This document shows positions 27,422-53,666 of a stretch of DNA of 64,000 bases, one piece after another. The notes under the pieces were generated by a model. That model searched no databases and was not told the origin of the DNA. It saw only the letters and a list, made by a program, of their open reading frames with translations. Source of the DNA: an uncultured Candidatus Saccharibacteria bacterium (lineage in GTDB: Bacteria; Patescibacteriota; Doudnabacteria; UBA920; O2-02-FULL-48-8); contig CAZSDS010000001.1 in the NCBI GenBank assembly GCA_964605735.1, positions 703,157-767,156 on the forward strand, written 5' to 3'. The position numbers and the translations under genes are program-made. Positions within the stretch are counted from its first letter, which is position 1. Each line of letters starts with the position of its first letter.

Positions 27422-27586
27422 GCGACGCTGAAGCATTTTGCTGATGGCGGGGATTCGGCGCAGGCACATCAGTGCCGAGCCTGAAGCAGCGAACCACCTT
27501 AGAGGAGATCCTGACATTTGTCAGGAATACATAATAATGCAGTTCGACTGCGTGCCCCGACAGCAGAAAAATGCGCAGGCTAAGCC
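27422..27586 (+). repeat. copy 1 of a ~150-nt hairpin element with imperfect terminal inverted repeats (MITE-like or structured RNA)
   Basis: Shares about 75 nt (5') and 45 nt (3') of near-identity with 38487-38622 and with the reverse complement of 53520-53666. The ends GCATTTTGCTGATGGCGGGG and CCCCGACAGCAGAAAAATGC are inverted repeats. Confidence 0.8.
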
Positions 27587-27592
27587 ACATTT

Positions 27593-27934
27593 ATGACACG
27601 ACGCACAGAACAAGTTGCATCTTTAATACAGCAGGAGCTCGGCCAGCTCATGCTGTCTTTGGATTTGCCTGCCATGACCACAATCAGCAGGGTAGAGGTG
27701 ACTCAGGATTTGAAACACGCAAAAGTTTGGATCACTGTGCTGAGCGAAGACAAGAAGGTGGAAGATTTTGTTATGGATGCGCTTCACAAAAACATGTATG
27801 ACCTCCAGGGTGAATTGAACCGAATGTCCACCATGCACCATACCCCGCGCATCGCTTTCAAAATAGATAATTCCCAACACCATGTTTCCCGCATTAACGA
27901 GCTGCTGAAGAGCACGCATGACGATGAACAATAA
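27593..27934 (+). CDS. rbfA: ribosome-binding factor A
   Basis: MTRRTEQVASLIQQELGQL... RbfA N-terminus and KH-like fold; it follows infB. Confidence 0.8.
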   Translation: MTRRTEQVASLIQQELGQLMLSLDLPAMTTISRVEVTQDLKHAKVWITVLSEDKKVEDFVMDALHKNMYDLQGELNRMSTMHHTPRIAFKIDNSQHHVSRINELLKSTHDDEQ

Positions 27935-28886
27935 TTCGGGAGAATTTAAAAAAGCTTGGGTTTTAATAGAATCATCCCAGAAGATTTTCATGACAACTCA
28001 TGAACATACGGACGGCGATGACTTAGGCAGTCTTCTTGCCATGAAGATCGTGTTGGAGAAAATGGGTAAGGAGCTTTTTTGTATTGTTAACGGAGGTGTG
28101 CCGCATACTTTGAAATTCCTGCCAGGCAGCAGTGAGGTAACCGAGGAATTTCAGAACCGTGATTATGACTTAGTGATCACGTTTGGGTGCAACAGCATTG
28201 ACCGGCCTAATTATCCGGAACTTAAAAATCTGAAATCGAAAATATTGAACTTCGATCACCATCCGGATAACAAGATGTTTGGTCACGTGAACATGGTGGA
28301 TGTCAGCACTGCGGCGGTGGCAGAGTTGGTCTATTATTTTTTTAAATCGAATCCGGAAGTAATAATTGACAAAGACATTGCCACCTGTCTGCTTACTGGG
28401 ATATTTACCGATACGGGCGGCTTCAAGCATTCGAACACCTCAAGCAGGGTTTATGAAGTTGCCGCCGATTTGCTTAAGAAAGGCGCGCGAATCGACAAAA
28501 TTTCCCAGGAGACGTTTGGAAATAAACGTCCGCAAACTTTAAGAGCCTGGGCAAAGGCTTTGGAGAATGCCCGTTTTGACCCGGAAAAACAAATGGTATT
28601 TTCTGTCATGACTGAAGAGGATATGAGAGAGGTGCAGGCCGATGATGAAGATTTAACCGGGTTTGTGGAAGTGCTGAACCATATGCCGCAAGCCAAGTTT
28701 GCTCTGATGTTGAGACAGGATGGGGATGTGGTAAAAGGGAGCTTGCGTTCTGATCCGCACAAAAAAACTGATGTATCGGAAATCGCCAAGACTTTTGGGG
28801 GCGGGGGACACAAGTATGCTTCCGGGTTTAAGGTTAAAGGCAAACTCACGCGTGACGAAAAGGGTTGGAAAATAGTTCCAAGGTAG
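27918..28886 (+). CDS. DHH/DHHA1 phosphoesterase (NrnA-like oligoribonuclease / pAp phosphatase)
   Basis: The HEHTDGDDLGS and DHH motifs and a C-terminal GGGH...ASG DHHA1 domain. Confidence 0.75.
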   Translation: MTMNNNSGEFKKAWVLIESSQKIFMTTHEHTDGDDLGSLLAMKIVLEKMGKELFCIVNGGVPHTLKFLPGSSEVTEEFQNRDYDLVITFGCNSIDRPNYPELKNLKSKILNFDHHPDNKMFGHVNMVDVSTAAVAELVYYFFKSNPEVIIDKDIATCLLTGIFTDTGGFKHSNTSSRVYEVAADLLKKGARIDKISQETFGNKRPQTLRAWAKALENARFDPEKQMVFSVMTEEDMREVQADDEDLTGFVEVLNHMPQAKFALMLRQDGDVVKGSLRSDPHKKTDVSEIAKTFGGGGHKYASGFKVKGKLTRDEKGWKIVPR

Positions 28887-29078
28887 TATCCACAAGACAG
28901 GCATTTACAATAGGTAAAATATTATAGCCATACTGACAAGTGAACAACATTTGGGCCAACCCCAAGACTTAAAACACCTGCAATCAGGCCGGTGTTTTAT
29001 ATTGTAAAATACAGTGTTTCCAAACTTGGTGATTTGCCTTGGTTTATGGTAAAATAAACAGGCATTCATAACATATAT

Positions 29079-31304
29079 ATGGGAAGAAAGAAACAAAAAG
29101 ACCATGATGATTACGGCTTTAGAAGGCCGCAGCTTAATTTGAAAAAAGACACACAGCGCGGAGTCGCTGTTATTGTTTTTATAGTCCTCGCCATCCTGTT
29201 TACCCTAAGCCTCGCCAATATTGCCGGACCTTTCGGTGAGATTTCCAACCGCGTAATGAAACTGGCTTTTGGCTGGATGGCTTATGGCGTGCCTTTAATT
29301 TTTCTGATGGTCGCGACAGCTTTGCTGAAACAAACAGATGAACCTGATGAAGAAAAATCCAAAACCATTTCAACCCATGCTTACGTGGGTGCGGTGTTTT
29401 TGACATTGTCCCTGACCGGCTTGTTGCATTTGATTGTCATTCGCGAAGACTATACGCAAGCTTTCCAAATGGTTAAAGATGGATTAGGCGGCGGTTACTT
29501 GGGATTGTTTACTGCATATCCTTTGATTCAGCTCATGGGGTTTATTGCCAGCCTGGTTGTTTTGCTTGCGGCAATTACCATTTCACTGATTGTCACTTTT
29601 AATGTTTCCATCACAGACTTGTTCAAGCGCAGGCAGAAACCGGAAGAGGCTAAGTTGGCGGTTAAACCCGCGGCGCCTCTGAAAATCAATAATGGCGCAG
29701 CCGGATTCACCAAGGAAGAAGTCGGAGAGATGAACTCAGCCGTGAAAAAGGAAAAGGAAAAACTTGAGCCTGTCGTTAACCAGCTCGGTGATCTTAAAGG
29801 CGGCACGCAAGCAGCTCCTAAGATGATGATGACAGACAAGAACTGGAAACTGCCATCACTTGATCTGCTGGAAGGCAGCAAGAATAAAGTTGATTCTGGA
29901 AATATTGAAGCAAATGTTTCGGTCATTCAAAAAACTCTTGCTGATTTTGGCATTGAGGTGGAAATGGGGGAGGTTAATGTTGGTCCGACTGTCACACAGT
30001 ATACCTTCCGTCCGGCTGTAGGCGTAAAGCTTTCACAAATTGCAGGTCTGCAAAATGATTTGGCTTTGGCTTTGGCGGCCAGCGCCATTCGTATGGAGCT
30101 TCCCATTCCGGGCAAGGCATTGGTTGGTTTGGAAATTCCAAACAACGCAAAAGCCACTGTCCGAATCAAGGAAATTTTGGGACACCAAACATTTACTGAA
30201 CACCAGTCAAAAGTTGCTTTTGCACTTGGCCGGGATGTGTCCGGTGCGCCAATTGTCACTGATTTGGCAAAGATGCCTCACTTGCTGGTAGCAGGTGCAA
30301 CCGGTTCCGGTAAATCCGTGGCCATCAACTCCATTTTGATGAGCTTCCTGTTCCGCTCTTCTCCGTCAGATGTAAAGATGATTTTGGTTGACCCTAAGCG
30401 CGTGGAACTTTCTTTATATAACGGGATTCCTCATTTGTTGACCGGCGTCATCACTGACCACCAGCAGGCGGTTAATGCTTTGCGCTGGACAGTGGGGGAG
30501 ATGGACCGTCGTTATAAATTGCTGCAGGAAGTGGGCAAGCGCAACATAGGAGAGTTTAATGATTCTTTGACAGATACTTCAGCAGTCCGCAAACTGCCGT
30601 ACTTGGTTTTGGTTATTGACGAATTGGCGGATTTGATGAGTGTTGCCCAAACTGAAGTGGAAGCAGCCATTGTTCGTTTGGCGCAAATGGCGCGCGCAGT
30701 GGGAATCCATTTGATAGTCGCTACCCAGCGCCCTTCCGTGGATGTCATTACTGGTTTGATCAAGGCAAACATCACAACCCGCATTGCGTTTGCAGTGGCT
30801 TCGCAGGTTGACTCCCGCACCATTTTGGACATGGCGGGCGCGGAAAAACTGCTTGGTGCCGGAGACATGTTGTATACCAGTTCTGATTTGCCTAAGCCTA
30901 AGCGTATTCAAGGGACTTATGTGAACGAAAAGGAAATCAAGAAAGTTACGGACTTTTTGAAGGAGCAGGCCGGGGACGTTATTTATGATCATAATGTGGT
31001 GGAACGGCCGCAACGAGACGTGACTATTCCTGGATTTGAAGGGGTTGGGCAGAGCGACAGCAATGAAGATGATTTGCTGTCTGAAGCAATAGAAACTGTC
31101 CAGGCTGCTGGCAAAGCTTCGGCGTCATTATTACAGAGACGATTGCGAGTTGGTTATGCTCGCGCGGCCAGGCTTTTGGATATTTTGGAAGAGAAGGGAA
31201 TTGTTGGTCCGGCAGATGGTGCCAAGCCTCGCGAAGTTTATGGTGCGACTGGCGGCGATGATGCGGCAGAAGAGGGTTATGGAAGTGATGAAGGAAACGC
31301 TTAA
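29079..31304 (+). CDS. ftsK: DNA translocase FtsK/SpoIIIE
   Basis: Four or five N-terminal TM helices, Walker A GATGSGKS, and a gamma domain LLQRRLRVGYARAARLLDILEEKGIVG. Confidence 0.9.
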   Translation: MGRKKQKDHDDYGFRRPQLNLKKDTQRGVAVIVFIVLAILFTLSLANIAGPFGEISNRVMKLAFGWMAYGVPLIFLMVATALLKQTDEPDEEKSKTISTHAYVGAVFLTLSLTGLLHLIVIREDYTQAFQMVKDGLGGGYLGLFTAYPLIQLMGFIASLVVLLAAITISLIVTFNVSITDLFKRRQKPEEAKLAVKPAAPLKINNGAAGFTKEEVGEMNSAVKKEKEKLEPVVNQLGDLKGGTQAAPKMMMTDKNWKLPSLDLLEGSKNKVDSGNIEANVSVIQKTLADFGIEVEMGEVNVGPTVTQYTFRPAVGVKLSQIAGLQNDLALALAASAIRMELPIPGKALVGLEIPNNAKATVRIKEILGHQTFTEHQSKVAFALGRDVSGAPIVTDLAKMPHLLVAGATGSGKSVAINSILMSFLFRSSPSDVKMILVDPKRVELSLYNGIPHLLTGVITDHQQAVNALRWTVGEMDRRYKLLQEVGKRNIGEFNDSLTDTSAVRKLPYLVLVIDELADLMSVAQTEVEAAIVRLAQMARAVGIHLIVATQRPSVDVITGLIKANITTRIAFAVASQVDSRTILDMAGAEKLLGAGDMLYTSSDLPKPKRIQGTYVNEKEIKKVTDFLKEQAGDVIYDHNVVERPQRDVTIPGFEGVGQSDSNEDDLLSEAIETVQAAGKASASLLQRRLRVGYARAARLLDILEEKGIVGPADGAKPREVYGATGGDDAAEEGYGSDEGNA

Positions 31305-31325
31305 GCAGTAAAAAATCCAATTATC

Positions 31326-31490
31326 CTTCGAACGTAGTGAGAAGTTAATAGTAACCCATAGTTCTCGCGGAGGCTCGAACAATAATATTTAAACTCTGGC
31401 ATTTACATCTTCGAGCGAATTAGCGAGAAGTTAAGCATCCTTATTTTTAGTTCTCGCGAAGCTCGAATAACAAACATTTCATTCTTGAAC
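31326..31490 (+). repeat. two tandem ~83-bp direct repeats, each containing a stem-loop
   Basis: R1 (31326-31408) and R2 (31409-~31490) align at about 75% identity. Each carries CGAGAAgtta...TTCTCG inverted repeats. They lie upstream of the RodZ-like gene. Confidence 0.6.
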
Positions 31491-34184: not shown

Positions 34185-34189
34185 TAGTA

Positions 34190-34759: not shown

Positions 34760-34779
34760 AACACTTAAACGAGAACAAT

Positions 34780-38373: not shown

Positions 38374-38486
38374 AGGTCCGTGAATCTAAACAACAGGTTC
38401 CCGGGCTTTTTTATTTTGTTATGACCACTAGCGCTCGCGGTCTCTCTGTGAAAAGGGCAGCACAGTCGTTTTTAGGTGGAGAGTCA

Positions 38487-38622
38487 CTAATGAAGCATTT
38501 TGCTGATGGCGGGGATTCGGCGCAGGCACATCAGTGCCGAGCCTGAAGCAGCGAACCACACTAAAGGAATGTTAACTATAGAAGTTCGACTGCGTACCCC
38601 GACAGCAGGAAAATGCGCAGGT
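38487..38622 (+). repeat. copy 2 of the ~150-nt hairpin element
   Basis: Near-identical to 27431-27495 and 27541-27578 at its ends. The central ~35 nt differ. Confidence 0.8.
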
Positions 38623-42890: not shown

Positions 42891-43322
42891 ATGAAATCAA
42901 AAATCAACAAAATATTCTTTACTGCACTTGTTTTTCTGCTCTTTGCGCAACCAGTTTTTGCGCAAGGTTTTGTTTTTTGCGGAAAACGAAGTCAGGATGA
43001 TCCTAATACCCCAGTTGTGGAAGGGGCGTGTACGCTCAATGACCTTTGGACCTTGATTTTCTACGGTGCCAACTTTTTGATTGGAATGTCAGGTTTGGTT
43101 GCTTTGTTCTTTGTTGTCTGGGGTGGAGTAAGAATGATGCTTTCCTTTGGGAACCCGGAAGCAGTTAAGGAGGGGAAGTCCACTATTACCAATGCCTTAC
43201 TCGGTTTGGTGCTGGTGTTGCTTTCCTATTTGATAGTTGGATATGTTGCTGAATTGCTCTTGCCGGGCGGGGGAGTAGGCAACCCGCTTCAAAACCTTAT
43301 CCGATACGTAAGACCGAATTAG
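42891..43322 (+). CDS. TrbC/VirB2-like pilin family protein (paralog 1)
   Basis: Signal peptide, then two hydrophobic helices flanking a short polar loop (LIGMSGLVALFFVVWGGVRMMLSFGNPEAVKEGKSTITNALLGLVLVLLSYLIVG). Confidence 0.6.
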   Translation: MKSKINKIFFTALVFLLFAQPVFAQGFVFCGKRSQDDPNTPVVEGACTLNDLWTLIFYGANFLIGMSGLVALFFVVWGGVRMMLSFGNPEAVKEGKSTITNALLGLVLVLLSYLIVGYVAELLLPGGGVGNPLQNLIRYVRPN

Positions 43323-43325
43323 ACT

Positions 43326-43982
43326 ATGAAGAAGCTCTTAATAGCATTAATAATAATTTTGGCCATTGTCCCGTTCTTCGCTTTTGCGCAAGAAGCGTGT
43401 TCGCCGGGTTACACCGGCACTTCGCTCTGCAACGCGATCCCAAGATTCGGCGGCTTAAACATAAACGATTTACAGGGATTTATTATTGGGATATTTTCCT
43501 GGATTGCCGGAATCATTGGCACAATCCTTATGGCCGTTCTTATATACAGCGGGATAAAGATGGTGCTCTCACAGGGTGATCTAGGCAAAGTCAAAGAAGC
43601 CAAAGCGTCATTTACTTATGCCATCCTGGGTTTTTTGGTAACTATCTTTGGATACGTGATTGTTTCCTCGGTTCAGTATTTCATTGGCGTCAGGCAGGGT
43701 GATCCTGAGCAGGAAAGAAATTTCTTCTTTAACCCTTTGCGGGACAGCACATTGATCGGATTTCTTGAAACAACAATGACAAACGTTTTAGGAGTTGTCG
43801 GTGCCGTCGTTTTGTTTTATCTTGTGTGGAATGGATTCAAATATATATTGGCTGGATCAAATGAAGAGCAGACAAAAGCTGCCAAGTTGGCGATTACATG
43901 GTCCATCATTGGTTTGATCAGTATTTTAGCATCTTACACAATAGTAAAGGTTCTTATTGATACATTTGGAAAATATACATGA
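43326..43982 (+). CDS. TrbC/VirB2-like pilin protein with duplicated pilin module (paralog 2)
   Basis: Signal peptide plus two consecutive helix-loop-helix pilin modules (..LIYSGIKMVLSQGDLGKVKEAK.. and ..LVWNGFKYILAGSNEEQTKAAK..). Confidence 0.6.
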   Translation: MKKLLIALIIILAIVPFFAFAQEACSPGYTGTSLCNAIPRFGGLNINDLQGFIIGIFSWIAGIIGTILMAVLIYSGIKMVLSQGDLGKVKEAKASFTYAILGFLVTIFGYVIVSSVQYFIGVRQGDPEQERNFFFNPLRDSTLIGFLETTMTNVLGVVGAVVLFYLVWNGFKYILAGSNEEQTKAAKLAITWSIIGLISILASYTIVKVLIDTFGKYT

Positions 43983-44320
43983 AGAAATATTTTCTACCGA
44001 TTTTCATAATACTCTCAAGTTTGGTGGCTGCACCGGCGCAGGCCGTGCTACGGGGGAATGCTCCCGGGGGTCTCTTTGTTAGTTTCACCAGCAATGATCC
44101 TTATAATGTGATCATGGCGGTAATTTCTTTGATACTTGGGTTTGCTGGGTCAGTTGCCATGTTGTTTTTAATCATTGGTGGATTTTATTATGTAACTGCT
44201 GGCATGAACGAGGATTTGGCAAAGCGCGGCAAATTGTATGTTAAAAATTCCATAATCGGCTTGATAATTATCGTATTATCGTATACCATTATATCTGTAA
44301 TATATAGGGAACTTGCGTAG
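43979..44320 (+). CDS. TrbC/VirB2-like pilin family protein (paralog 3)
   Basis: Start overlaps the previous stop. LFLIIGGFYYVTAGMNEDLAKRGK motif. Confidence 0.6.
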   Translation: MKKYFLPIFIILSSLVAAPAQAVLRGNAPGGLFVSFTSNDPYNVIMAVISLILGFAGSVAMLFLIIGGFYYVTAGMNEDLAKRGKLYVKNSIIGLIIIVLSYTIISVIYRELA

Positions 44321-44374
44321 ACTTTTATAAATCCTATGAAAGGTCGAAATAAATATAAAAAGAAAGGAATAAAA

Positions 44375-44755
44375 ATGAAGAAAATAACAAAAATTGCTAA
44401 CATCTTAATGATCTGTTTGAGTTTGGTTTTGGTTGTGGCCCCATTTGTGGCTGGTGCTCAGTTCAACCTGCCTAACGCAGGCGGCACTGGTTTGACCGGC
44501 GGCATCACAAACGAAACCACTCTGACAGGTTTTATCTTGCGCGTTATCAACATCGCGTTGGCGTTGGCTGGTTTGATTGCTGTTTTGTTCCTGATCATCG
44601 GTGGTTTTAGATACATCACTGCTGGCGGAAACGAAGAAGCATCAGGTAGTGCCAAAAAAATTATTTTGAACGCGGTCATTGGTATTATTGTCATCATTCT
44701 GTCATTCGTAGTTGTCCGTGTTGTGGCCAATACTTTGACCTCCACTAACATCTAA
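44375..44755 (+). CDS. TrbC/VirB2-like pilin family protein (paralog 4; start moved to ATG 44375 after AAAGGAA)
   Basis: LFLIIGGFRYITAGGNEEASGSAKK motif and a signal peptide. Confidence 0.6.
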   Translation: MKKITKIANILMICLSLVLVVAPFVAGAQFNLPNAGGTGLTGGITNETTLTGFILRVINIALALAGLIAVLFLIIGGFRYITAGGNEEASGSAKKIILNAVIGIIVIILSFVVVRVVANTLTSTNI

Positions 44756-44759
44756 CAGT

Positions 44760-45143
44760 ATGAAGAAAAAGTTAAGCATATTGTTGGTAGTGGCGTTTGT
44801 CATTGTGGGGGTTTCCGCATTTTTTACCGCAGATGCTCAAGGGTTGACCGCGCCAAGTAATCCCGGTGGATTGTTGGATTTCTCTAGAGTCAAAGGCGGA
44901 TCAGGCGGTGTAGCAGGACTTATCATTGCAATTACAAACTTGGTTCTTGGGGTTGCCGGAGCAATTGCCATACTCTTTGTGATCATTGGTGGTTTCCAGT
45001 ACATTCTCAGCGGAGCCAATGAAGATTTGGCCAAGCGAGGCAAGGCTACACTAACGAATGCCATCATCGGTTTGATAATTATTGTATTGTCATTTACAGT
45101 AATTAGCGTTGTATATACTACACTTACAAATGTACAACCATAA
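44760..45143 (+). CDS. TrbC/VirB2-like pilin family protein (paralog 5)
   Basis: LFVIIGGFQYILSGANEDLAKRGK motif and a signal peptide. Confidence 0.6.
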   Translation: MKKKLSILLVVAFVIVGVSAFFTADAQGLTAPSNPGGLLDFSRVKGGSGGVAGLIIAITNLVLGVAGAIAILFVIIGGFQYILSGANEDLAKRGKATLTNAIIGLIIIVLSFTVISVVYTTLTNVQP

Positions 45144-45229: not shown

Positions 45230-46435
45230 TCAGTTTTGCGTCGTAGGAACGCAGTTACCGCTCGATTCGTTGAAGGTGCCGCGGAGCGTTCTGCTGCGCT
45301 TGGTGCTGTCCGCGGTGTAGAACCTTGATTCGTTCACCGGAATCTTGGGTGTCTCATCGTCGCCACGGTTGGCGACTTGATACACGGCCATGGATTTCGG
45401 CTTGACTCGTTCCGTAAAGCAGGCATCCTGCCCTTCCAGGGGAGTCACGAACGTAATCAAAGCGGGTGCATCTGAGTCAGCGGGAATTTTGCCGTCCCAG
45501 ATGTTGTTGACGTTGTTTGCCGTGTCCACGAAATTGCCGTTCATGTACACTCGAACCCTGCCCATGAACCGGTCAGGCCCTTGCGTGCGGAACGCGGCGA
45601 TGTAGTTCTCACCCATGAAATTGCGGATCTTGCGCGCCTGGTTGACTGAATAGAACCCATATGGGTTGTAACCATACTGGTATCCGTATGCCGCGCCGTA
45701 GTTCAGTCCGTAGCCATATTCAGCCGGGATAGTTTCCAGCGGCGTGCCGGGTTCAAGTCCGAGCGCCATGTTCCGAAAGTGCGTCATGTTAGTCATGTGC
45801 GCACGCGCCAGGGTCTGCGGCGATTCAAGTGCCGGATTTTTGTAGCGGATCGGCTGAACCAAACCCTGGTCCATTGCATCCAGAACAAAGTCGTTGACCA
45901 AGTCCTGGGGCATGACTTGCCGAGGTGCCGTTGGCGGTACACCGTACAAAGGCGGTGTGTAGGCAGGCGGCGTGGCCGGCGTGGCCGGCGTGGTTGGAGC
46001 AATGCTCTCTGCCCGACGCGTCACTTGCGGCGCGCTTGGTGCAGGGGAAATTGCGCCAGAGCGGTGGTGAAGTACCAGGGTGTTGCCCTGGAATTCGTGC
46101 GTGACGTTGTGCGGGCGCAGTGCCCTGAGCAACTTGTCCAGCACATTGCCGAGCGGTTCTTTGACAAATCCGCCCTTGAGCCTGGTTTCGTCCAAGACCC
46201 GTTCTTCTGTTCCGGCGCCCAGCACGTAACTGAATCCAGGTGCTTGCTGGGTGAGGCCGTCGAGGATTTCCCGCAGGCTCCTGTCCTGTCCGGCCGGCGG
46301 CGCATTCAGGCTCACAATCGAGTTGTACACGTTCCCGATGATCCTGGCCGGCTGCTGCGCCCCGGCGAACGCCGGTACGCTGAGCAAAACCAACAGGATC
46401 AGAAAAACGTTGTGCGCGGTTCTGATGCTCTTCAC
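45230..46435 (-). CDS. secreted Pro/Thr- and Tyr/Gly-rich hypothetical protein (start moved to GTG at 46435)
   Basis: GTG start 6 nt after AAGGAGG. The signal peptide KSIRTAHNVFLILLVLLSVPAFAGA is followed by APTTPATPATPPAYTPP and YGYGLNYGAAYGYQYGYNPYGFY low-complexity tracts. GC-rich by eye. Confidence 0.55.
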   Translation of the reverse strand: MKSIRTAHNVFLILLVLLSVPAFAGAQQPARIIGNVYNSIVSLNAPPAGQDRSLREILDGLTQQAPGFSYVLGAGTEERVLDETRLKGGFVKEPLGNVLDKLLRALRPHNVTHEFQGNTLVLHHRSGAISPAPSAPQVTRRAESIAPTTPATPATPPAYTPPLYGVPPTAPRQVMPQDLVNDFVLDAMDQGLVQPIRYKNPALESPQTLARAHMTNMTHFRNMALGLEPGTPLETIPAEYGYGLNYGAAYGYQYGYNPYGFYSVNQARKIRNFMGENYIAAFRTQGPDRFMGRVRVYMNGNFVDTANNVNNIWDGKIPADSDAPALITFVTPLEGQDACFTERVKPKSMAVYQVANRGDDETPKIPVNESRFYTADSTKRSRTLRGTFNESSGNCVPTTQN

Positions 46436-46644
46436 TGTCTTCCTCCTTGGAAGTGAAAATTGCTGATTGGACAATATCTGAAGTGGTGTAAATCGCGAAT
46501 TTATCGAGCAAGTCAAAATATGATTTTGACTTGCAATTATAGCAAAAAAAGAGCATTTTGTCAATGCTCTAGAAAGAACATCTAAAGACCTTTGCGCAGG
46601 CGATATTAACTACTCCAAAAGATTTTGAGAATGAATTAGACAAT

Positions 46645-46672
46645 AAAAAAGAAGGGCCTAAAGATCAGGCCC
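46645..46672 (-). terminator. intrinsic terminator for the minus-strand operon
   Basis: On the minus strand: GGGGCC-tgatcttta-GGCCC followed by TTCTTTTTTATT. Confidence 0.6.
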
Positions 46673-46699
46673 CTCGATGTTCAAGTCCGCAAGTTGCGG

Positions 46700-48556
46700 T
46701 TACTTGAACCGGTAGTAAAATCCTCCTTCCAGCGGAAACCCGTTCACGGCGATTTTAACCGTTGTGGTTGCCGACTGGATTGTAATTTCGTCCCCAGTCA
46801 TGGGATACGCGACACCGTCCACCAGGACGATGATTTGCATCAGGTTCCCACCCTCAACGAGTGGGCCGTGCTGTTGATATCCACGCAGGCCCATTGGTTG
46901 GCTGCACCTAACGTCAGAACCGATGACACGAGCCGCGTAGCCCGAGATCACCAGGGTCTGTCGTGTTGCTGGGATCACGCCGGTGTCGTGCCAGCGCACT
47001 TGTTCGGTTAAGGTCCCCAGATCCACGTAAGTGAGCGGAGACTTTGACGGCTGCGCCGACGCAAACACGTGTTCGGAGCGAGGTTTGTATTCCCGTTCCG
47101 TGCTGCCCATCCGCGAAGCTGCCCCCAGCTTCCTTTGGTACATGTCCAGTGAGTCGAACATATTGTACACACCAGCCACATACAGCATGATCGCAAGAAC
47201 CATGAGCGATCCGGCGGTAGCTGCCCTTTTTCTGTCGCGTGCCACCATTGCATAGACCCAAACGATGGCAATGAAAGTCAGGAGCAGGATGAGCGGGTAC
47301 TTTGGCATGTCAGACATGTTCATGATCTGGTTCCAGAAAGGCTGTCCAAAGATCAGCACTGCCAGAATCAGAGCCACTCCCATAATCTGTTCCACCAAAC
47401 CAAGCTTGTCGCCAGACGTTGCAGCCGAAGACGAGGTACTGGATTTGGTTGTTATAGTGGTTGCCGCTGAACCTGCTGTTGGATCACCCGCACCCGGCAC
47501 TGTTGGTCCAGTTGCGGCGGCGATTACAGGTGCTGGGCCCGCGATGTTTCTCCAAAACCAGATGACCGTGCCAATGAAGGCGAGGCCAAAAAGCATGAGG
47601 ATGATCCATCCAAGCGCCCAGACGAATCTGTTTTTCCAGGTCATTTCCTGCCATCCGGCCGGAACAAAGTTCCAGCTTTCTGACGAGGCAGAAGAGCTTG
47701 GATTAACAGTTCTAGCCCCCAGAATGCGGTCGCGTTTCTGAATCAGAAGGTCGAGTGCCTTCCTTTCTGATTCGGTTAATCCGCGCTGCATGTTTTTGTT
47801 TTGCAGTACAGCGATTTCGCCATACGTTTTGTTCAATTCAGTTTCAGCCTGATTTCTCAGGTTATCTTCGTGTTGGTTCGCGATTTCCCGATTCTTGTTC
47901 ACGAAGACAGCTTCTGACTGAATTTTCTGAACGTGGGCGAGATGGGGAAGCAGGCTTCCCAGAATCGCGAACAGCAGAATACCGCTGATCGCGTATCCGC
48001 TGAGCCTCATCCACTCGTTCCGGTTCAGTGTGATGATACCCCACGTAAACAGGGCCAGAATGATCATCCCAGAGAAGTACGGGCTTGGCCACTGAGGCAT
48101 TGCCGCCAGGATGAAGATGAACACCATCATGGAGGCGATGACCGCGAGAGCTGACCTGACCAGGAATTTCAGGAATACCAGGTCCTCGAAAGTGCCGGTG
48201 CCTGTGTATTCGATCATTCCCTTAGGGTGGGTAGGGAGGTGAAAGTGAATTTTGCCCCTGAGTTTGTTCAGGACAAGATCGACTCCCACTGCAAGAGCGG
48301 CGGCGTTGATGCTCCGTTCGCTCATCAAAAGCATGAGGATGATCGGCGGGTAAACAATCCCCAGCCACGGCATGATGCTGTGGCCGAAAGATCCCAGTGA
48401 ACCGATTGTCACGGTTGCGATCAGCCAGAGCAGTGAAACAAGAAGGAGGCTGAAGTACGATGCCATCAGCGCCCTCATTGCCGTTGCCGCCCAGCCGCCG
48501 ACTGTTCGGACGGCTTCATCCAGAAGCCGGAAGAAGTCCATGATCAAAGCACCCAT
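46700..48556 (-). CDS. large polytopic membrane protein with internal coiled-coil and Thr/Ser-rich linker (function unknown; VirB6/TrbL-like topology is a guess)
   Basis: 618 aa with 10 or more predicted TM segments, an ~100-aa coiled-coil insert and a C-terminal soluble domain. GC-rich by eye. Confidence 0.55.
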   Translation of the reverse strand: MGALIMDFFRLLDEAVRTVGGWAATAMRALMASYFSLLLVSLLWLIATVTIGSLGSFGHSIMPWLGIVYPPIILMLLMSERSINAAALAVGVDLVLNKLRGKIHFHLPTHPKGMIEYTGTGTFEDLVFLKFLVRSALAVIASMMVFIFILAAMPQWPSPYFSGMIILALFTWGIITLNRNEWMRLSGYAISGILLFAILGSLLPHLAHVQKIQSEAVFVNKNREIANQHEDNLRNQAETELNKTYGEIAVLQNKNMQRGLTESERKALDLLIQKRDRILGARTVNPSSSASSESWNFVPAGWQEMTWKNRFVWALGWIILMLFGLAFIGTVIWFWRNIAGPAPVIAAATGPTVPGAGDPTAGSAATTITTKSSTSSSAATSGDKLGLVEQIMGVALILAVLIFGQPFWNQIMNMSDMPKYPLILLLTFIAIVWVYAMVARDRKRAATAGSLMVLAIMLYVAGVYNMFDSLDMYQRKLGAASRMGSTEREYKPRSEHVFASAQPSKSPLTYVDLGTLTEQVRWHDTGVIPATRQTLVISGYAARVIGSDVRCSQPMGLRGYQQHGPLVEGGNLMQIIVLVDGVAYPMTGDEITIQSATTTVKIAVNGFPLEGGFYYRFK

Positions 48557-48579
48557 TGCTATCTCCTTGGTCTCAAAAA

Positions 48580-49242
48580 TTAGCGGTTGAGGAGAGCTGA
48601 CTTCAGCCGGCTCCAGAAGGTTACATGTCTGGCAGGATCCCAGTCGAAGCCAGTGTTTCTGCTTCGCCGCAGATCATCGGCAAGCTCGCGGAGAGTTGGA
48701 CTTCCTGTCTCTTCTGCCCAGCTTGTGATCAGGGCCTGGTTTTTTTCCATCCATACGGCAAAGCTTTTGCCCTTGCCGCTGGAGAAGAATCCAGTGATCT
48801 GACGATCGACCCGCTTCTTGTCCAGGTCCATGAACTTCACGTAGTTCTTCCAGTCGTCATCAGTCATGTTACTGAGTTTCGCCAGGACCTGAGCCGTCTT
48901 TTTCGGGTCGCCGCCCTTGCGGTCTCCTTCGACCTTGTATTGCGCCACCAGGATACGGAACCGGTTCTGCTGGTGGTCGTTCAGCTTACTGACCCTCTTC
49001 AGCAACGTGTGAAGATTTTCAATGCTGACGTTTTCGTCGCTGATGGCAGCGTTGAACAGCTGTTCATCAGCTACGTCGTTGGGCAGAAAGTCGTTGAAGA
49101 TGCTTTTGACCTTGTCCTTTACTTCAGGTCGGTTTACCAGCATCTTGAACATGCTTGCCAAGCCGCTTGTGAAGCTTTCTTCGGCGATAGCTTCACCGCC
49201 TCGCTTGGTCAAACCCCAAATCGTCTTCCAAAAGCTAGCCAT
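48580..49242 (-). CDS. hypothetical cytoplasmic protein (start at ATG 49242 after AAAGGAG)
   Basis: 221-aa ORF; SD 7 nt upstream. It lies 23 bp upstream of the 618-aa membrane protein. Confidence 0.5.
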   Translation of the reverse strand: MASFWKTIWGLTKRGGEAIAEESFTSGLASMFKMLVNRPEVKDKVKSIFNDFLPNDVADEQLFNAAISDENVSIENLHTLLKRVSKLNDHQQNRFRILVAQYKVEGDRKGGDPKKTAQVLAKLSNMTDDDWKNYVKFMDLDKKRVDRQITGFFSSGKGKSFAVWMEKNQALITSWAEETGSPTLRELADDLRRSRNTGFDWDPARHVTFWSRLKSALLNR

Positions 49243-49456
49243 TCGCACGCTCCTTTTTATCTTTGATTTTTCCCAAATTGTGAAACTGCAATCCGTTCGC
49301 CTAGAAAATTCCAGTCTGAAACAGTAAATAATAGCAGAAATTGACGATTTTGTCAAGAATACACAGTAAATAGCACAAATATCCGGTTAATTTAGGTTTA
49401 TGCTGGCGTTTTCATTAAATGTGGGCTTTGGTATAATTACGAGGCTTTAAGAAAAG

Positions 49457-49543
49457 GCCGGGGTGGTGAAATTGGCAGACACGCAAGGTTTAGGACCTTG
49501 TACCCGAAAGGGTGTGGAGGTTCAAGTCCTCTCCCCGGCACCA
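49457..49543 (+). tRNA. tRNA-Leu (UAG), type II
   Basis: Hand-folded: acceptor GCCGGGG/CCCCGGC, anticodon loop TTTAGGA, variable arm, T-arm GGAGGTTCAAGTCCTCT, CCA encoded. Confidence 0.8.
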
Positions 49544-49682
49544 AGAGCATAATAATATGTTATATTGCGGGGACTTGAACGGGCAGAAGTGAGGCAAGTT
49601 CGTAAGGAACGCAGCCAAACGATCGACAAACGTCCAGTGGACGTTTGGCGCTGCCCTGTAAAGAGCGCCAGCAGGCGACTGA

Positions 49683-49708
49683 AAGTCCTCTCCCCGGCAC
49701 CAAGAAGG
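49683..49708 (+). repeat. 23-bp direct repeat of the 3' end of tRNA-Leu(UAG) (att-like scar)
   Basis: AAGTCCTCTCCCCGGCACCAAGA at 49521-49546 is repeated at 49683-49708. The 137 bp between them contains a perfect 9-bp-stem hairpin, CAAACGTCC-agt-GGACGTTTG. Confidence 0.75.
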
Positions 49709-49809
49709 CGCAATAAGCACTTTGGTTTCCAATTGACAGCGTAAATGCTGTTCTCTAAAATTTTAGGACAACTTAATCAATTTAACCAACATTTTAACCA
49801 CCAAATATA

Positions 49810-51708
49810 ATGAATAGATTTGTAAGAAACATTTTGATTGTACTGGCAATTTTTGTGATAGTGGCTGCGGTGTTCAGTTTTGTAAATACTGACGACGCAA
49901 ATGTCGAACGCGTGACCATATCAGAAGTTGCTGAGCAGGCAAAGGCCGGGCAAATTGATCGTGTTGAAGTTGAAGAAGACCGCGTCTATGTATTTTTGAA
50001 AGACGGTACCCAGCAAACAGCAAATAAAGAAAGACAGGAATCGTTCCTCACGGTTTTGGAAACATATGGAGTGACGCAGGAACAGCTTTCAAGTTTCCGA
50101 GTGGACGTGCTTGACTCGTCAGGTTCATCCTTCCTGCTTTCTACGATCCTGCCTTTTGTGATACCATTCCTCTTCATCGCCGCATTCATATGGTTTTTAA
50201 TGCGACAAGTGCAAGGCTCAAACAACCGGGCAATGTCTTTTGGACAGTCCAATGCCAAAGTCATGGAGCAATCCGACCGCCGCAAGCGCGTAACATTTAA
50301 TGACGTCGCGGGCGTGAAGGAAGCCAAAGAAGAGCTGAAAGAAATAGTTGAGTTCTTAAAGTACCCGCAAAAATTCTTTAACCTTGGGGCGCGAATCCCC
50401 AAAGGTGTTTTGTTGCTTGGTCCTCCAGGCGTTGGGAAAACAATTATTGCCCGTGCCGTGGCAGGGGAGGCTAATGTCCCGTTCTTCCACATCTCAGGCT
50501 CTGAGTTCGTGGAAATGTTCGTTGGGGTTGGTGCTTCCCGTGTTCGTGATTTGTTCAAGAAGGCCAAGCGCAATGCTCCGTGTATCATTTTCGTGGATGA
50601 AATTGACGCAGTTGGAAGACAGCGAGGTGCCGGTCTTGGCGGCTCTCATGACGAACGCGAACAAACTTTGAACCAAATTCTCGTAGAGATGGATGGGTTT
50701 GACAACGAGACCAATGTCATTGTTATTGCCGCCACAAACCGTCCGGACGTTTTGGATCCAGCTTTAATGCGCCCTGGCCGATTCGACAGACAAGTCATTT
50801 TGGACCTGCCGGACATTTCTGACCGCGAGGCTATTTTGAAAGTCCATGCCAAAAACAAGCCTTTGTCCCAAAACGTTGATTTGCGCGCTCTGGCTGAAAG
50901 AACCCCAGGCTTCTCCGGTGCGGATCTCGCCAACTTGATGAACGAAGGAGCAATTCTGGCTGCACGCAAAAACAACAAGGAAATCGGGCAAATTGACCTG
51001 TTTGAAGCAATTGAGAAAGTAATGATCGGCCCTGAAAGGAAAAGCCATGTGCTGTCAAAGCGAGAAAAGGAAATCGCTGCCTGGCACGAGGCTGGGCACG
51101 CTCTGGTTGCCACAGTTCTGCCGCACGCAGATCCGGTGCACAAGGTTTCCATTGTTTCGCGCGGGCGGGCTGCAGGTTACACCATGAAAATCCCGACCGA
51201 AGACAAGAACCTGCACTCCAAATCAGAATTCCTGGCAGACCTGGCAGTGTCATTGGCTGGGCAGGCCACGGAAAAAATGATTTTTAACGAAATCACCACC
51301 GGCGCTTCAAACGACTTGAAAGTCGCCACCAACCTTGCCCGCAAACTAGTCACCACCTACGGCATGTCTGATCTGGGCCCTATGACCTTTGGCGACCAGC
51401 ACGAAATGATTTTCCTCGGCCGCGAAATTTCCGAACAGAAAAATTATTCGGAAAAAGTTGCTGCCCGCATTGACGAAGAAGTGGCTGGGTTCATTGACCG
51501 CGCCTACCAGACCGCAACTGATATTTTGATCAAGTACCACAATTACCTCAAAGCAATCGCTGACAAATTAATGGAAGTTGAAACTTTAGAGCGGGAAGAG
51601 TATGAGGCAATCGTCAAAGACATTATTCCGCAGGAAAAACTCTACAAGAGGTCGTCCAGCGAAATGGTCACGCCTCCAACACCTGAGTTCGGCTCCCAAA
51701 CTGCTTAA
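49810..51708 (+). CDS. ftsH: ATP-dependent zinc metalloprotease FtsH
   Basis: Two N-terminal TM helices, AAA+ Walker [12 protein letters not shown], and the zinc-binding HEAGHALV motif. Confidence 0.95.
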
Positions 51709-51713
51709 AACAC

Positions 51714-52652
51714 ATGGAGGGAAACTTCCTCAAAATACTAAAACAGGCCTTTCAACTGACAAAAGGATATAAATTCTTTTGGCTGTTGGGTCTGTTTTTG
51801 GTTTGGTTTAATTTTTTCCGGGCCTTGTTATTGTTGTTCGGCATGAGAAGCGGGATGGATTGGATGCCTTTGGAAGGGAATATTGGCGCTGGGCCGATCA
51901 ATGAGACTGCCGGCAATGGTTGGATCGGTGTAGTCTCTTTGGTATTCATAACACTTGCCGTGATTTTTTATTTCCGAAGCAAGGGTGCGCTGATTTCCGC
52001 AGTCAGCCAGCTTAGGGACAAAAAATCCCTGGACAAGAAACTTGTTTACAGCGAGTCAGAACCCCATACAATTAAACTGATGAAAGTGGGTTTCGGGCTG
52101 ATGGCGGCAATGTTGCTGGTCGGCGCGCTGTTAGCCAGTCCTGTGGTTTACCTGACCGCAAACAATTATTCCAGCCGCGCATTTTCGCTTGGGTTGATGG
52201 CCACCATTATTTACTTGCCAATTTTTTGCATCCTTTATTATCTGGCGGTTTTGACGCCCATGTTTATTGTCCTGCAAAGGATGAGTATAGGCGGGGCACT
52301 CAAAGCCGGGTTTGATCTGATAAGAAAGTATTGGCCGATGCTGATTGCCTTCAGTGCAATACTGCTGTTGGTGGAGCTGGTTTTGGTCATAGTCTCACTT
52401 GGCCTCATGGTTGCCGCAACCTTGCCATTTGTCCTTTTATATAATGTATTTTATGATATGGGAGGCCAGACAGCGGCAAATATTTTGCAGGGACTGGCAA
52501 TTTTAGCTGGTTTTATGGTATTCTTTATCTCCATGGGTTTGGTGGCTGGATTTCAGCGCATCGCATGGACAATAGCATTCTTTGAAATAATCAAACCGGT
52601 GAAAATCGAAGAAGCCGCTACGGCGGAGACTTTGCCGGAAGTAATCACCTGA
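51714..52652 (+). CDS. polytopic membrane protein (hypothetical)
   Basis: 312 aa, 6-8 TM helices, immediately downstream of ftsH. Confidence 0.5.
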   Translation: MEGNFLKILKQAFQLTKGYKFFWLLGLFLVWFNFFRALLLLFGMRSGMDWMPLEGNIGAGPINETAGNGWIGVVSLVFITLAVIFYFRSKGALISAVSQLRDKKSLDKKLVYSESEPHTIKLMKVGFGLMAAMLLVGALLASPVVYLTANNYSSRAFSLGLMATIIYLPIFCILYYLAVLTPMFIVLQRMSIGGALKAGFDLIRKYWPMLIAFSAILLLVELVLVIVSLGLMVAATLPFVLLYNVFYDMGGQTAANILQGLAILAGFMVFFISMGLVAGFQRIAWTIAFFEIIKPVKIEEAATAETLPEVIT

Positions 52653-52657
52653 ATCGC

Positions 52658-52732
52658 GGACGGTTAGCTCAGTGGTAGAGCATCTCTTTGACGTAGAGAG
52701 GGTCATAGGTTCAAATCCTATACCGTCCACCA
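52658..52732 (+). tRNA. tRNA-Val (GAC)
   Basis: Hand-folded: acceptor GGACGGT/ACCGTCC, anticodon loop TTGACGT, T-arm ATAGGTTCAAATCCTAT, CCA. Confidence 0.8.
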
Positions 52733-52824
52733 GAGGAATTAAGGAAAATAATCATTAACGATTTCAGATCTCAAACTCCAACTAGTTTGGTGCTTGTGAT
52801 TTGGAATTCTTGGGGGACAACCCA

Positions 52825-53517
52825 ATGGCTGATTTAAACCAGCTTGAAGAAGAAATAAACATAAAATTCAACGACCGGAATTTGCTGCAAAGCGCCCTGA
52901 CTCACCGTTCTTACCTAAATGAAAACCGTTCCTGGCCGCTGCCACATAACGAGCGCCTCGAATTTTTGGGAGACGCGGTTTTGGAATTGATAACCACTGA
53001 GTATCTGTACCGCAATTTTCCGAACCCGGAAGGTGAGCTGACCAACCTGCGCTCAGCTTTGGTTAACTATAAGATGCTTTCCGAAATCGCCGCTGGAATC
53101 AGGCTGGACAAATACATAATGCTTTCCAAAGGCGAGGCTAAGGATTTGGGGCGTGCCCGGCAGGTTATTTTGGCGAACGCCATGGAAGCGCTTATTGGCG
53201 CAATTTATCTTGATCAGGGATTTGCAAAGTCTGAAGAATTCGTGCACAGGTTTGTAATTAACCAGCTCGCGGCGATTGTTTCCGGCGGGAAGGTCTTGGA
53301 CCCAAAGAGCAAGTTTCAGGAATTGACCCAGGAGAAAATGGGAGTTACTCCGCATTACAAAGTGCTGGCAGAGTGGGGGCCTGATCATAACAAGCAGTTT
53401 GAAGTTGGGGTTTTTGTGCAGGATAAACAGATTGCCAAAGGCCAGGGTAGTTCAAAGCAAGAGGCTGAAATATCAGCGGCGGCCAATGGACTCAAAGTCT
53501 GGTCCGATCAAATTTAG
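52825..53517 (+). CDS. rnc: ribonuclease III
   Basis: ERLEFLGDAVLELIT signature and a C-terminal dsRBD. Start placed at MADLNQ. Confidence 0.9.
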   Translation: MADLNQLEEEINIKFNDRNLLQSALTHRSYLNENRSWPLPHNERLEFLGDAVLELITTEYLYRNFPNPEGELTNLRSALVNYKMLSEIAAGIRLDKYIMLSKGEAKDLGRARQVILANAMEALIGAIYLDQGFAKSEEFVHRFVINQLAAIVSGGKVLDPKSKFQELTQEKMGVTPHYKVLAEWGPDHNKQFEVGVFVQDKQIAKGQGSSKQEAEISAAANGLKVWSDQI

Positions 53518-53519
53518 TG

Positions 53520-53666
53520 CGGCTTAGCCTGCGCATTTTCCTGCTGTCGGGGCACGCAGTGGAACTTCTACAATTTACATTCCTTTAAAGTTGTTCGCTG
53601 CTTCAGGCTCGGCACTGATGTGCCTGCGCCGAATCCCCGCCATCAGAAAAATGCTTCAGCATCGCC
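53520..53666 (-). repeat. copy 3 (inverted orientation) of the ~150-nt hairpin element
   Basis: The reverse complement matches copies 1 and 2 across both conserved arms. Starts 3 bp after the rnc stop codon. Confidence 0.8.

Follow-up and report, generated by a model that had tools for sequence, protein, structure and literature searches.

Correia elements of Neisseria (CREE/NEMIS) are bounded by 26-bp inverted repeats and duplicate a TA dinucleotide at their target, and PATEs are ends-only derivatives of IS200/IS605 insertion sequences which carry the actual left and right ends of their parent. To our knowledge, there are hardly any descriptions of small non-autonomous repeats from the Candidate Phyla Radiation (CPR; Patescibacteria), whose genomes are tiny and streamlined. 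A full-text literature search uncovered neither MITEs nor REP-like elements reported from the CPR, and no CPR host is among those given in a 2024 review of MITEs (PMC10969869). MITEs that carry promoters and MITEs whose inverted repeats are cleaved by RNase III are both documented, Correia elements being an example of each (PMC10969869). Regarding REPINs, compensatory changes have been reported (PMC3116915), and IS200/IS605 elements, which insert on the 3' side of a fixed tetra- or pentanucleotide, generate no target-site duplication (PMC7290912).

The window (the whole 64-kb stretch of CPR DNA that was analysed, from an ultra-small bacterium of Candidatus Doudnabacteria) carries near-identical copies of a hairpin-forming element between housekeeping genes, at sites where the element is missing in relatives, for which a small parasitic mobile element is the most likely explanation. 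The element is probably a lineage-specific, non-coding, non-autonomous mobile DNA repeat, i.e., a MITE in the broad sense.

Copies of the element and their predicted fold

The core of the element, TGAAGCATTTT...AAAATGCGCAGG, is 131 nt long and was found three times in the window (Table 1), the span listed for copy 1 including a 20-nt insertion specific to that copy. A stretch of 49 nt (GGCGGGGATTCGGCGCAGGCACATCAGTGCCGAGCCTGAAGCAGCGAAC) is identical in all three copies (no match in 100 shuffles), the 65-nt 5' half shows a single variable base, and the 32-nt 3' arm has at most one mismatch among the copies. The sequence-only reading had named the same three loci, at nearly the same coordinates, and had claimed identity of their arms; both claims were upheld on alignment. 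A repeat search and nhmmer --max recovered no further copy in the 64-kb window. Distances of 11 and 15 kb separate the copies, which occur in both orientations, are each placed precisely between genes and have unrelated flanks.

The element measures about 130-170 nt. Copies 1 and 3 (extended length about 155-170 nt) share outer segments of about 10-20 nt at each end, (T)G(C)GGCGAYGC (left) and CTAAGCCRCA (right), which set the approximate outer limits listed in Table 1. Copy 2 deviates from them on both sides simultaneously, where it reads GTCACTAA (left) and TAGTACA (right); these outer ends run against the prediction of a transposase that reads fixed ends. Substitutions were counted at 6 of 26 positions of the tip (copies 2 vs. 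3) and at 4 of 107 positions of the arms, and tips more variable than arms are the usual pattern in MITEs. The apex of copy 1, initially described as unrelated to the other two, aligned as the same tip enlarged by the 20-nt insertion, which forms a small hairpin of its own.

Imperfect terminal inverted repeats (TIRs) of about 35 nt (25 of 35 positions inverted-identical in copy 3) enclose an invariant hairpin and a variable tip, so that either strand folds into a Y-shaped structure. The degenerate inverted-repeat pattern GCATTTTNCTGNTGNCGGGG has exactly six matches in the window, which are the six ends of the copies, with none expected. The predicted fold (z-scores of -5.1 to -5.4 as RNA and -5.4 as DNA) is a three-way junction of an outer stem (P1), a local hairpin (P2) and a stem with the variable tip (P3), instead of the one long imperfect hairpin first proposed. 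All P1 pairs are retained in the three copies. As RNA, P2 reads UUCGGCGCAGGCAC-AUCA-GUGCCGAGCCUGAA; its 32 nt lie entirely within the 5' arm and have no counterpart in the 3' half. The base of P3 reads GCAGCGAAC/GUUCGACUGC as RNA, and no complementarity of the tips to the flanks was found. In copies 1 and 3 the 3' end carries a mini-hairpin, GGC-TAA-GCC. Folding is about as good on one strand as on the other, also as single-stranded DNA, with the sense strand somewhat ahead of the antisense strand in copy 2 (-55.4 vs. -51.4 kcal/mol) and copy 3 (-67.2 vs. -58.5 kcal/mol). Compensatory changes between the copies were seen in part, in three sequences that carry no statistical power: the two outermost pairs, in an ambiguous end region, changed on both sides and stayed paired, and within the core no substitution was compensatory and one broke a P3 pair in copy 3.

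Table 1. Positions of the element copies, their structural parts and associated features in the window.
Feature	Position	Strand	Remarks
Copy 1, extended form	27420..27589	+	core 27429-27579; fold -71 kcal/mol, z = -5.1
Copy 2, core only	38491..38621	+	fold z = -5.3
Copy 3, extended form	53518..53669	-	core 53528-53658; fold z = -5.4
5' TIR, inner part (P1 5' strand), GCATTTTGCTGATGGCGGGG	27433..27452 (copy 1)	+	equivalents 38495-38514 (+) and 53635-53654 (-)
3' TIR, inner part (P1 3' strand), CCCCGACAGCAGAAAAATGC	27555..27574 (copy 1)	+	equivalents 38597-38616 (+) and 53533-53552 (-)
P2 hairpin, DNA TTCGGCGCAGGCAC ATCA GTGCCGAGCCTGAA	27454..27485 (copy 1)	+	identical in all three copies
P3, base GCAGCGAAC / GTTCGACTGC and variable tip	27486..27551 (copy 1)	+	20-nt insertion in copy 1
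Promoter-like site CTGACA-16-AATAAT	27511..27538	+	toward rbfA; 10/12 consensus matches, a consensus match only
IS200-family Y1 (HUH) transposase gene	2255..2683	+	Pfam Y1_Tnp E = 6.7e-28; candidate trans-acting mobiliser only

Genomic sites, relatives and coding capacity

Copy 1 lies between the stop codon of infB (27405-27407) and the start of rbfA (27593) and is oriented like the two genes. Copy 2 is separated by 118 nt from the stop codon of a preceding 62-aa ORF and by 90 nt from the DUF3276 (PUR-alpha-like) gene downstream, and lies between a terminator-like hairpin with a T-run, which follows the ORF, and a promoter-like site (TTCACA-18-TAGAAT) of the DUF3276 gene. Copy 3 abuts the stop codon of rnc (53515-53517), precedes the smc start (53704) by 35 nt and is antisense to both genes. 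The identities first given to infB, rbfA, the DUF3276 (PUR-alpha) gene and rnc were correct; the accompanying statement that all copies directly follow gene stops is true of copy 3 and fails for copy 2, which is separated from the nearest stop by its 118 nt and the terminator-like hairpin. Orientation with respect to the neighbouring genes is mixed among the three copies, and with copy 2 placed between a terminator-like hairpin and a native promoter-like site the element shows no dependence on transcription.

The element is missing from the orthologous spacers of the examined relatives at all three sites. The infB-rbfA spacer measures 185 nt here vs. 5 nt (relative L003), 33 nt (L002) and 97 nt (L005), all without the element, and L004 carries a different, unrelated insertion at that site. 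At the site of copy 2 the L002 spacer, without the element, has 5 nt in place of about 210 nt in the window. Regarding the third site, the closest relative (RNase III 94% identical) has 27 nt between rnc and smc, and no homologue exists in L090 and L091; with a spacer this short in relatives and copy 3 antisense to rnc and smc, the meaning once attached to the proximity of rnc is not supported. These comparators are at genus level, not strain level, with an IF2 identity of only 80-84%, so that the absence shows a lineage-specific gain and not a recent transposition. Searches with blastn and nhmmer found no copy in about 110 kb of DNA from related Doudnabacteria, and exact-word scans of genome, metagenome and viral collections gave no homologue in the collections searched; the family is therefore known from one genome only, and its movement has never been observed.

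An independent Logan assembly of the same genome reproduces the infB-element junction and ends 41 nt into copy 1. A contig end inside a repeat is a typical assembly break. For metagenome assembly the element matters in that it breaks a short-read assembly of this genome; it could also serve as a strain marker. It is highly improbable that the element is immobile, its copies being a short sequence multiplied by segmental duplication or by gene conversion, or an artefact of assembly or sequencing. The small number of known copies (three) and the lack of a target-site duplication as a signature of transposition would suit such an origin, but the junction recurs in the Logan assembly, the copies lie far apart in both orientations with unrelated flanks and precisely intergenic limits, and their substitutions and 20-nt indel show that they were not pasted in as an artefact.

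No reading frame is consistent across the copies, and a six-frame peptide query gave no match among 5.8 billion proteins. Rfam 15 yielded no match at gathering thresholds, and permissive thresholds gave only chance-level matches for the three copies (E of at least 0.24, scores far below the cutoffs); in line with the sequence-only reading, which had recognised no family, no known RNA family was assigned to any copy. The element is probably not an RNA gene. A functional structured RNA, either a small RNA gene or a cis module for mRNA processing or stability (e.g., an RNase III substrate) that was spread or retained for its RNA role, would fit the strong and significant Y-shaped fold, the P2 hairpin and 5' half that are invariant but for one base, the somewhat better folding of the sense strand in copies 2 and 3, the outermost pairs that change on both sides and stay paired, and the location of two copies within operons of RNA-related genes. 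Such a function, offered by the sequence-only reading as its alternative, is nevertheless quite unlikely: Rfam assigns no family at either threshold, orientation is mixed, with copy 3 antisense to its transcription unit and copy 2 between terminator-like hairpin and promoter-like site, both strands fold alike, no promoter or terminator common to all copies was found, the core holds a P3-breaking substitution and no compensatory one, the two covarying pairs come from an ambiguous end region in three sequences without statistical power, and the orthologous spacers of every examined relative are without the element.

As a mobile repeat, the element would be moved by a transposase that is encoded elsewhere in the 797-kb genome and recognises its ends, and would settle in short intergenic spacers, where it would be harmless. 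Co-transcribed copies (copy 1 in sense, copy 3 in antisense) could place an imperfect duplex of 20-30 bp into the mRNA, which, by analogy with Correia elements, could undergo RNase III cutting or alter mRNA stability. The promoter-like site of copy 1 arises from the insertion specific to that copy, which may thereby supply a promoter facing rbfA. Insertions tolerated or exploited at the infB-rbfA and rnc-smc junctions would point to selfish DNA even in CPR genomes.

Candidate target sites and the IS200-type transposase gene

A scan of the three copies over all boundary offsets found no target-site duplication of at least 3 bp at shared offsets, a weak result given the uncertain boundaries; neither the TA dinucleotide suggested at the outset nor any other consistent duplication appeared in it. 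This argues against ordinary DDE cut-and-paste transposition and keeps alive a route via single-stranded DNA (Y1/HUH, REPIN- or PATE-like). No parent insertion sequence with the inverted repeats of the element was found in the 64-kb window. The number of copies (three only), the missing duplication, the missing parent insertion sequence in the window and the lack of a homologue in the collections searched all speak against a mobile repeat.

The preferred explanation can tentatively be refined: a Y1/HUH transposase, perhaps the TnpA encoded at 2255-2683, possibly mobilises the element in folded single-stranded form, as for REPINs or PATEs, with insertion 3' of a short word, perhaps CTAA, and without target-site duplication. 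The missing duplication is as expected of IS200/IS605, both strands fold well as single-stranded DNA, and the correlated changes at both ends recall the compensatory changes in REPIN hairpins (PMC3116915). In each of the three copies the region of similarity is immediately preceded on its 5' side by CTAA (27404-27407, 38487-38490 and 53676-53673), which contains the infB stop codon in copy 1 and is present on both sides in copy 3 only. This word rests, however, on three sites with uncertain boundaries, and copies 1 and 3 also share GCCRCA beyond their internal CTAA.

The only transposase gene in the window is the IS200-type gene, 25 kb from the element and with different ends. It is intact, with the usual predicted stem sequestering the ribosome-binding site, and has hairpins at both ends, CGCCGGC-TTTA-GCCGGCG (2161-2179) and TCCAGGC-TAA-GCCTGGA (2674-2690), which favours its involvement. 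The sequence CAGGCTAAGCC (10-11 nt) is common to its 3' hairpin and the 3' ends of copies 1 and 3 and occurs nowhere else in the window, but local alignment of the copies with either end of the insertion sequence recovered only this match, with a score no better than that of the best shuffle. The end hairpins are otherwise absent from the element beyond these 11 nt, so that it is not a simple deletion derivative of the Y1 insertion sequence, and the shared motif should be taken as a lead only. Further points against a role of this gene are that its protein scores as an IS200 TnpA (NCBIfam IS200/IS605 transposase, 109.5 bits, cutoff 55) and not a RAYT (21 bits, cutoff 80), that IS200/IS605 elements normally have no terminal inverted repeats, and that its HUH motif, aligned to solved TnpA structures, reads H-I-Y, with which the enzyme may be inactive.

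An unlikely but wider proposal combines these observations into a REPIN/RAYT-like partnership in the CPR, in which a single-copy, possibly domesticated H-I-Y HUH enzyme would spread the Y-shaped repeat as single-stranded DNA next to CTAA words, often stop codons, and the copies would serve the host at operon junctions as modules that provide RNA duplexes or promoters. If true, it would be the first system of its type from the Candidate Phyla Radiation, with a three-way-junction repeat whose invariant side hairpin is unlike known REPINs. A true link to the Y1 transposase would extend REPIN/RAYT-type biology to a new phylum; if the link is false, the element would be an ordinary, though new, member of a well-known class.

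Comparison with known systems

The kinship with Correia, ERIC and RUP elements that was originally suspected was rejected, as the sequences are unrelated and neither a TA duplication nor any other consistent target-site duplication was found; regarding Correia (CREE/NEMIS) in particular, the element ends in TG(C)GGCGAYGCTGAAGCATTTT and AAAATGCGCAGGCTAAGCCRCA, and its host is a CPR bacterium. Unlike these families, the element folds into a three-way junction with an asymmetric invariant hairpin and not into a simple foldback, its parent insertion sequence was not found in the window, and it resides in a CPR genome of about 0.8 Mb.

Like REPINs, the element has doublet-like palindromic ends, which let single-stranded DNA or RNA fold into a long hairpin, with a less conserved central spacer, arms that change in a correlated fashion and no target-site duplication found, and the window also contains a Y1 transposase gene with small inverted hairpins on either side. 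Unlike REPINs, it has no GTAG or CGTC tag at its ends, no independent REP singlets were seen, its length exceeds that of a typical REPIN, it branches internally, and three copies are known (64-kb window) vs. usually tens to hundreds. A cognate RAYT gene flanked by REP sequences was considered and rejected on the failed RAYT model and on flanking hairpins that share only 11 nt with the element.

PATEs resemble the element in being non-coding and hairpin-rich, with no target-site duplication found, a candidate target word (CTAA) 5' of each copy and an IS200-type tnpA nearby that shares an 11-nt hairpin motif with two copies. Membership was rejected, since the left- and right-end hairpins of a parent insertion sequence are not carried and only CAGGCTAAGCC is common; the inverted repeats of about 35 nt also set the element apart from IS200/IS605 elements, which normally have none at their termini.

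Regarding bacterial MITEs in general, neither a fixed-length target-site duplication nor, within the window, a parent insertion sequence with the same TIRs was found. The MITE-like dispersed palindromic element proposed from the sequence agrees with the length below about 500 bp, the TIRs, the lack of coding capacity, the three copies dispersed in 64 kb in both orientations, the empty sites in relatives (genus level) and the assembly break inside copy 1. As in Correia (CREE), ERIC and RUP elements, it has 100-200 nt, is non-coding and intergenic, often at gene ends and in both orientations, and its imperfect TIRs let the transcript fold into a long hairpin; as in Correia elements, a sigma70-like promoter motif is present, here in one copy. 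The element thus most likely represents a new family, of a known general kind, of MITE- or REPIN-like non-autonomous palindromic repeats.

Copies and predicted fold

The element, a palindromic non-coding repeat of ~130-170 nt, is present at all three loci proposed in a sequence-only reading of the window, and repeat finding, blastn and nhmmer --max agreed on exactly three copies in these 64 kb, with no degenerate remnants. The arm identity on which that reading relied was upheld: over 49 nt the three copies do not differ at all, and the 3' arm shows at most one mismatch among copies, neither pattern being present in shuffled sequence. The common core of the copies comprises 131 nt, TGAAGCATTTT...AAAATGCGCAGG, and the terminus can be written as TG(C)GGCGAYGCTGAAGCATTTT. 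Copies 1 and 3 share the outer segments (T)G(C)GGCGAYGC (left) and CTAAGCCRCA (right), whereas the outer bases of copy 2 are GTCACTA and TAGTAC, again mutually complementary. The main seat of variation is the tip, where copies 2 and 3 differ at 6 of 26 positions; elsewhere, the 39-nt 3' arm has three variable sites and the 68-nt 5' half has one. Copy 1, whose tip was previously taken to be unrelated to the others, proved on alignment to have the same tip enlarged by a 20-nt insertion.

Coordinates and context of the element copies and of other features of the window
Feature	Position	Strand	Context or content	Spacer in window	Same spacer in relatives
Copy 1, core	27429-27579	+	between infB and rbfA, sense to the genes	site 1, infB-rbfA: 185 nt	5 nt (L003), 33 nt (L002), 97 nt (L005)
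Copy 2, core	38491-38621	+	after terminator-like hairpin, upstream of promoter-like site TTCACA-18-TAGAAT of DUF3276 gene	site 2, upstream of DUF3276 gene: ~210 nt between conserved flanks	5 nt, same flanks (L002)
Copy 3, core	53528-53658	-	abuts rnc stop codon, precedes smc, antisense to both	site 3, rnc-smc: 186 nt	27 nt (closest relative, RNase III 94% identical)
Stretch directly upstream of copy 2	38417-38490
IS200-type insertion sequence	2152-2729		tnpA only
tnpA (Y1 transposase)	2255-2683	+
Left-end hairpin of insertion sequence	2161-2179
Two tRNA genes	3632-3800	-
LAGLIDADG_3 ORF	3812-4486	-	free-standing
1638-aa protein	12623-17539	-	several Pur_ac_phosph_N and fibronectin type III repeats
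Gene-free gap	17540-18659		low GC, 1.1 kb
Wzy_C-like ORF	18660-19955	-
Genes adjoining the ORF run	42891-45143
ORF run	45230-49356	-	three consecutive ORFs (444, 618 and 258 aa)

Each copy folds well beyond shuffled controls (z -5.1 to -5.4). The predicted fold is a three-way junction, not the one long hairpin per element that had been envisaged: the outer stem P1 (~20 bp, with regularly spaced mismatches) is built from the terminal inverted repeats (25 of 35 positions match in copy 3), P2 is a 32-nt hairpin wholly inside the 5' half and identical in all copies, and P3 consists of a 9-bp base bearing the variable tip. Matches of the degenerate inverted-repeat word in the window were confined to the six element ends. 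As RNA, the reverse complement is almost as stable as the sense strand (-71.2 vs -71.1, -51.4 vs -55.4 and -58.5 vs -67.2 kcal/mol in copies 1, 2 and 3, respectively), and a fold was likewise predicted for either strand as single-stranded DNA. The RNAalifold consensus retained 45 pairs, almost all of them invariant and therefore uninformative for or against structure; two outermost pairs carry substitutions in both strands, and in copy 3 a single P3 pair is disrupted, in a comparison of three sequences without statistical power.

A small structured RNA family, the other interpretation offered in the sequence-only reading, found no support. Rfam returned 13 tRNAs only for the whole window at gathering thresholds and chance-level matches only for each copy at permissive thresholds. 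Moreover, copy 1 is sense, copy 3 antisense and copy 2 placed between a terminator-like hairpin and a promoter-like site, so that orientation and transcriptional context are inconsistent. No reading frame common to the copies was found. Several specific classes were rejected: a tRNA-like element (all 13 tRNA matches lie elsewhere in the window), a hammerhead or other small ribozyme (the hammerhead core is broken by CUGAUGG, and none was found by Rfam), TnpB/IscB omega RNA, IS110 bridge RNA and retron RNA (no Rfam match, no adjoining effector gene, no complementarity of the variable tip to the flanks), diversity-generating retroelement repeats (intergenic copies, whose differences are not adenine-specific) and integron attC sites (GTTRRRY core absent, housekeeping-gene context).

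Insertion sites in related genomes

The neighbouring genes had been named correctly as infB, rbfA, a PUR-alpha-like DUF3276 gene and rnc. A protein 100% identical to the IF2 of the window is on record from a 797-kb NCBI contig, for which the reads are in SRR7082976. The next relatives by IF2 (80-84% identity) are annotated as Candidatus Doudnabacteria (CPR/Patescibacteria), and the promoter-like site of the DUF3276 gene is conserved in one of them, L002. All three sites were found short in relatives (Table), and at site 3 the loci L090 and L091 hold no homologue of the element. In ~110 kb of DNA from related Doudnabacteria, blastn and nhmmer detected no copy. The Logan assembly of this organism breaks off 41 nt into copy 1, the usual behaviour of assemblers at repeats. 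Taken together, the empty sites, the copy-free DNA of relatives and the assembly break show that the element was gained within this lineage, in three separate spacers between genes.

The position of copy 3 beside rnc had been pointed out next to the remark that such elements can be RNase III substrates. A functional link to rnc was rejected, this copy being antisense and absent from relatives, and nothing indicates more than coincidence.

The orthologous spacer of L002 likewise lacks the ~72 nt directly upstream of copy 2, which have no match elsewhere in the window or among the loci fetched; a GGTGGA within them is able to pair with TCCAC of the native right flank, and the stretch is possibly part of the insertion. 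In L004, a related locus with an 84% identical IF2, the infB-rbfA spacer holds a different palindromic insertion of ~180 nt (8700-8906), Y-shaped too but unlike the element in sequence; direct repeats of 16 nt, AGACAATTTA[A/G]ACATA, flank this insertion, the left one including the infB stop codon. Small insertions may thus be favoured at the infB-rbfA junction of Doudnabacteria, as at a hot spot. The rnc-smc spacer of L090, unlike the short spacers of the other genomes examined, contains a 122-aa ORF (1597-1965) with no Pfam family and a putative HELVH (HExxH-like) motif, spotted by eye from the DNA.

Candidate mobiliser and other features of the window

A target-site duplication, raised as a possibility in the sequence-only reading, was not found at consistent offsets in a systematic boundary scan of the three copies, nor does the window contain an insertion sequence with matching inverted repeats. 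When the remaining ORFs were annotated, one proved to be an IS200-family Y1 transposase gene, lying in an IS200-type insertion sequence that also has two right-end hairpins and a stem sequestering the ribosome-binding site, as usual for the family. The exact protein is on record on two contigs only (one NCBI, one Logan), interpreted as one genome assembled twice; clustering at 90% adds two more proteins, on contigs shorter than 1 kb.

It is possible, if rather doubtful, that the element was moved by a Y1/HUH single-strand route linked to this gene. The missing target-site duplication fits single-strand transposition in the style of IS200/IS605 (PMC7290912) and of REPINs (PMC3116915), which leaves none and takes place 3' of a short word. 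CTAA lies directly 5' of the similarity onset in all three copies (including the infB stop codon in copy 1), as insertion 3' of such a word would have it. The 3' hairpin of the transposase gene, TCCAGGC-TAA-GCCTGGA, has the 11-mer CAGGCTAAGCC in common with the 3' ends of copies 1 and 3; the shared word, as a 10-mer, is found at no other place in the window, but its alignment scores no better than the best shuffle, and it was kept as a lead only. Against this route, the end hairpins of this insertion sequence are otherwise absent from the element, the transposase fails the RAYT model, and its HUH motif, when aligned with solved TnpA structures, is H-I-Y (the catalytic tyrosine is retained). 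Furthermore, the element has terminal inverted repeats, which IS200/IS605 elements normally lack. Because of these four facts the link is treated as a lead only.

A LAGLIDADG_3 homing-endonuclease-like domain (E = 5e-12) was found in an ORF directly upstream of two tRNA genes, about 1.1 kb from the transposase gene. The 14-nt palindrome GTTTCACGTGAAAC and its one-mismatch form GTTCCACGTGAAAC occur 10 times (0.32 expected), nine of them within 2.2 kb (17716-19905) and one more at 21784, and many additional GTTTCAC half-sites are present. The cluster, which spans the gene-free gap and the Wzy_C-like ORF and adjoins the gene of what is probably a large surface protein (1638 aa), possibly marks a replication origin or densely arrayed binding sites of a regulator; at ~20-21 kb gene orientation switches from - to + and the AT skew changes sign. 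The run of three ORFs without Pfam match has a higher GC content (0.50). Its adjoining genes appear, by gene order only, to match genes annotated as T4SS-pilin-like in relatives, and L091 and the P0126 contig have a comparable unannotated run in the same gene order (gene-table positions only).

Further searches and comparison with known repeats

No match was obtained with a 24-mer exact word in genome and viral contigs, or with a 28-mer exact word and a split inverted-repeat pattern (12 + 12 specified bases) in metagenome contigs; a degenerate inverted-repeat pattern (17 specified bases) gave four single matches in viral contigs, the estimated chance number. A concatenated six-frame peptide query, aimed at spurious ORF calls on other element copies, matched none of 5.8 billion proteins. 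Only chance-level matches (22-49 nt) resulted from blastn against plasmids and phages, and the 1.36 Mb of fetched loci yielded no further copy with either blastn or nhmmer. No description of such repeats was found in the literature on CPR bacteria.

If co-transcribed, the copies would give the transcripts of infB-rbfA and rnc-smc an imperfect duplex of 20-30 bp; in Correia elements, RNase III cleaves at the inverted repeats (PMC10969869). Through its own insertion, copy 1 gains a promoter-like CTGACA-16-AATAAT facing rbfA.

The element is probably a non-autonomous mobile palindromic repeat. The MITE-like reading stands in part: the element is a dispersed palindromic non-coding repeat with empty sites in relatives, and neither a target-site duplication nor a matching insertion sequence was found in the window. 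By the features tested, the element is not a member of the Correia family, an analogy drawn earlier that is not supported, nor of ERIC, RUP, REPIN/RAYT or PATE; in its behaviour it resembles a bacterial MITE or REPIN.
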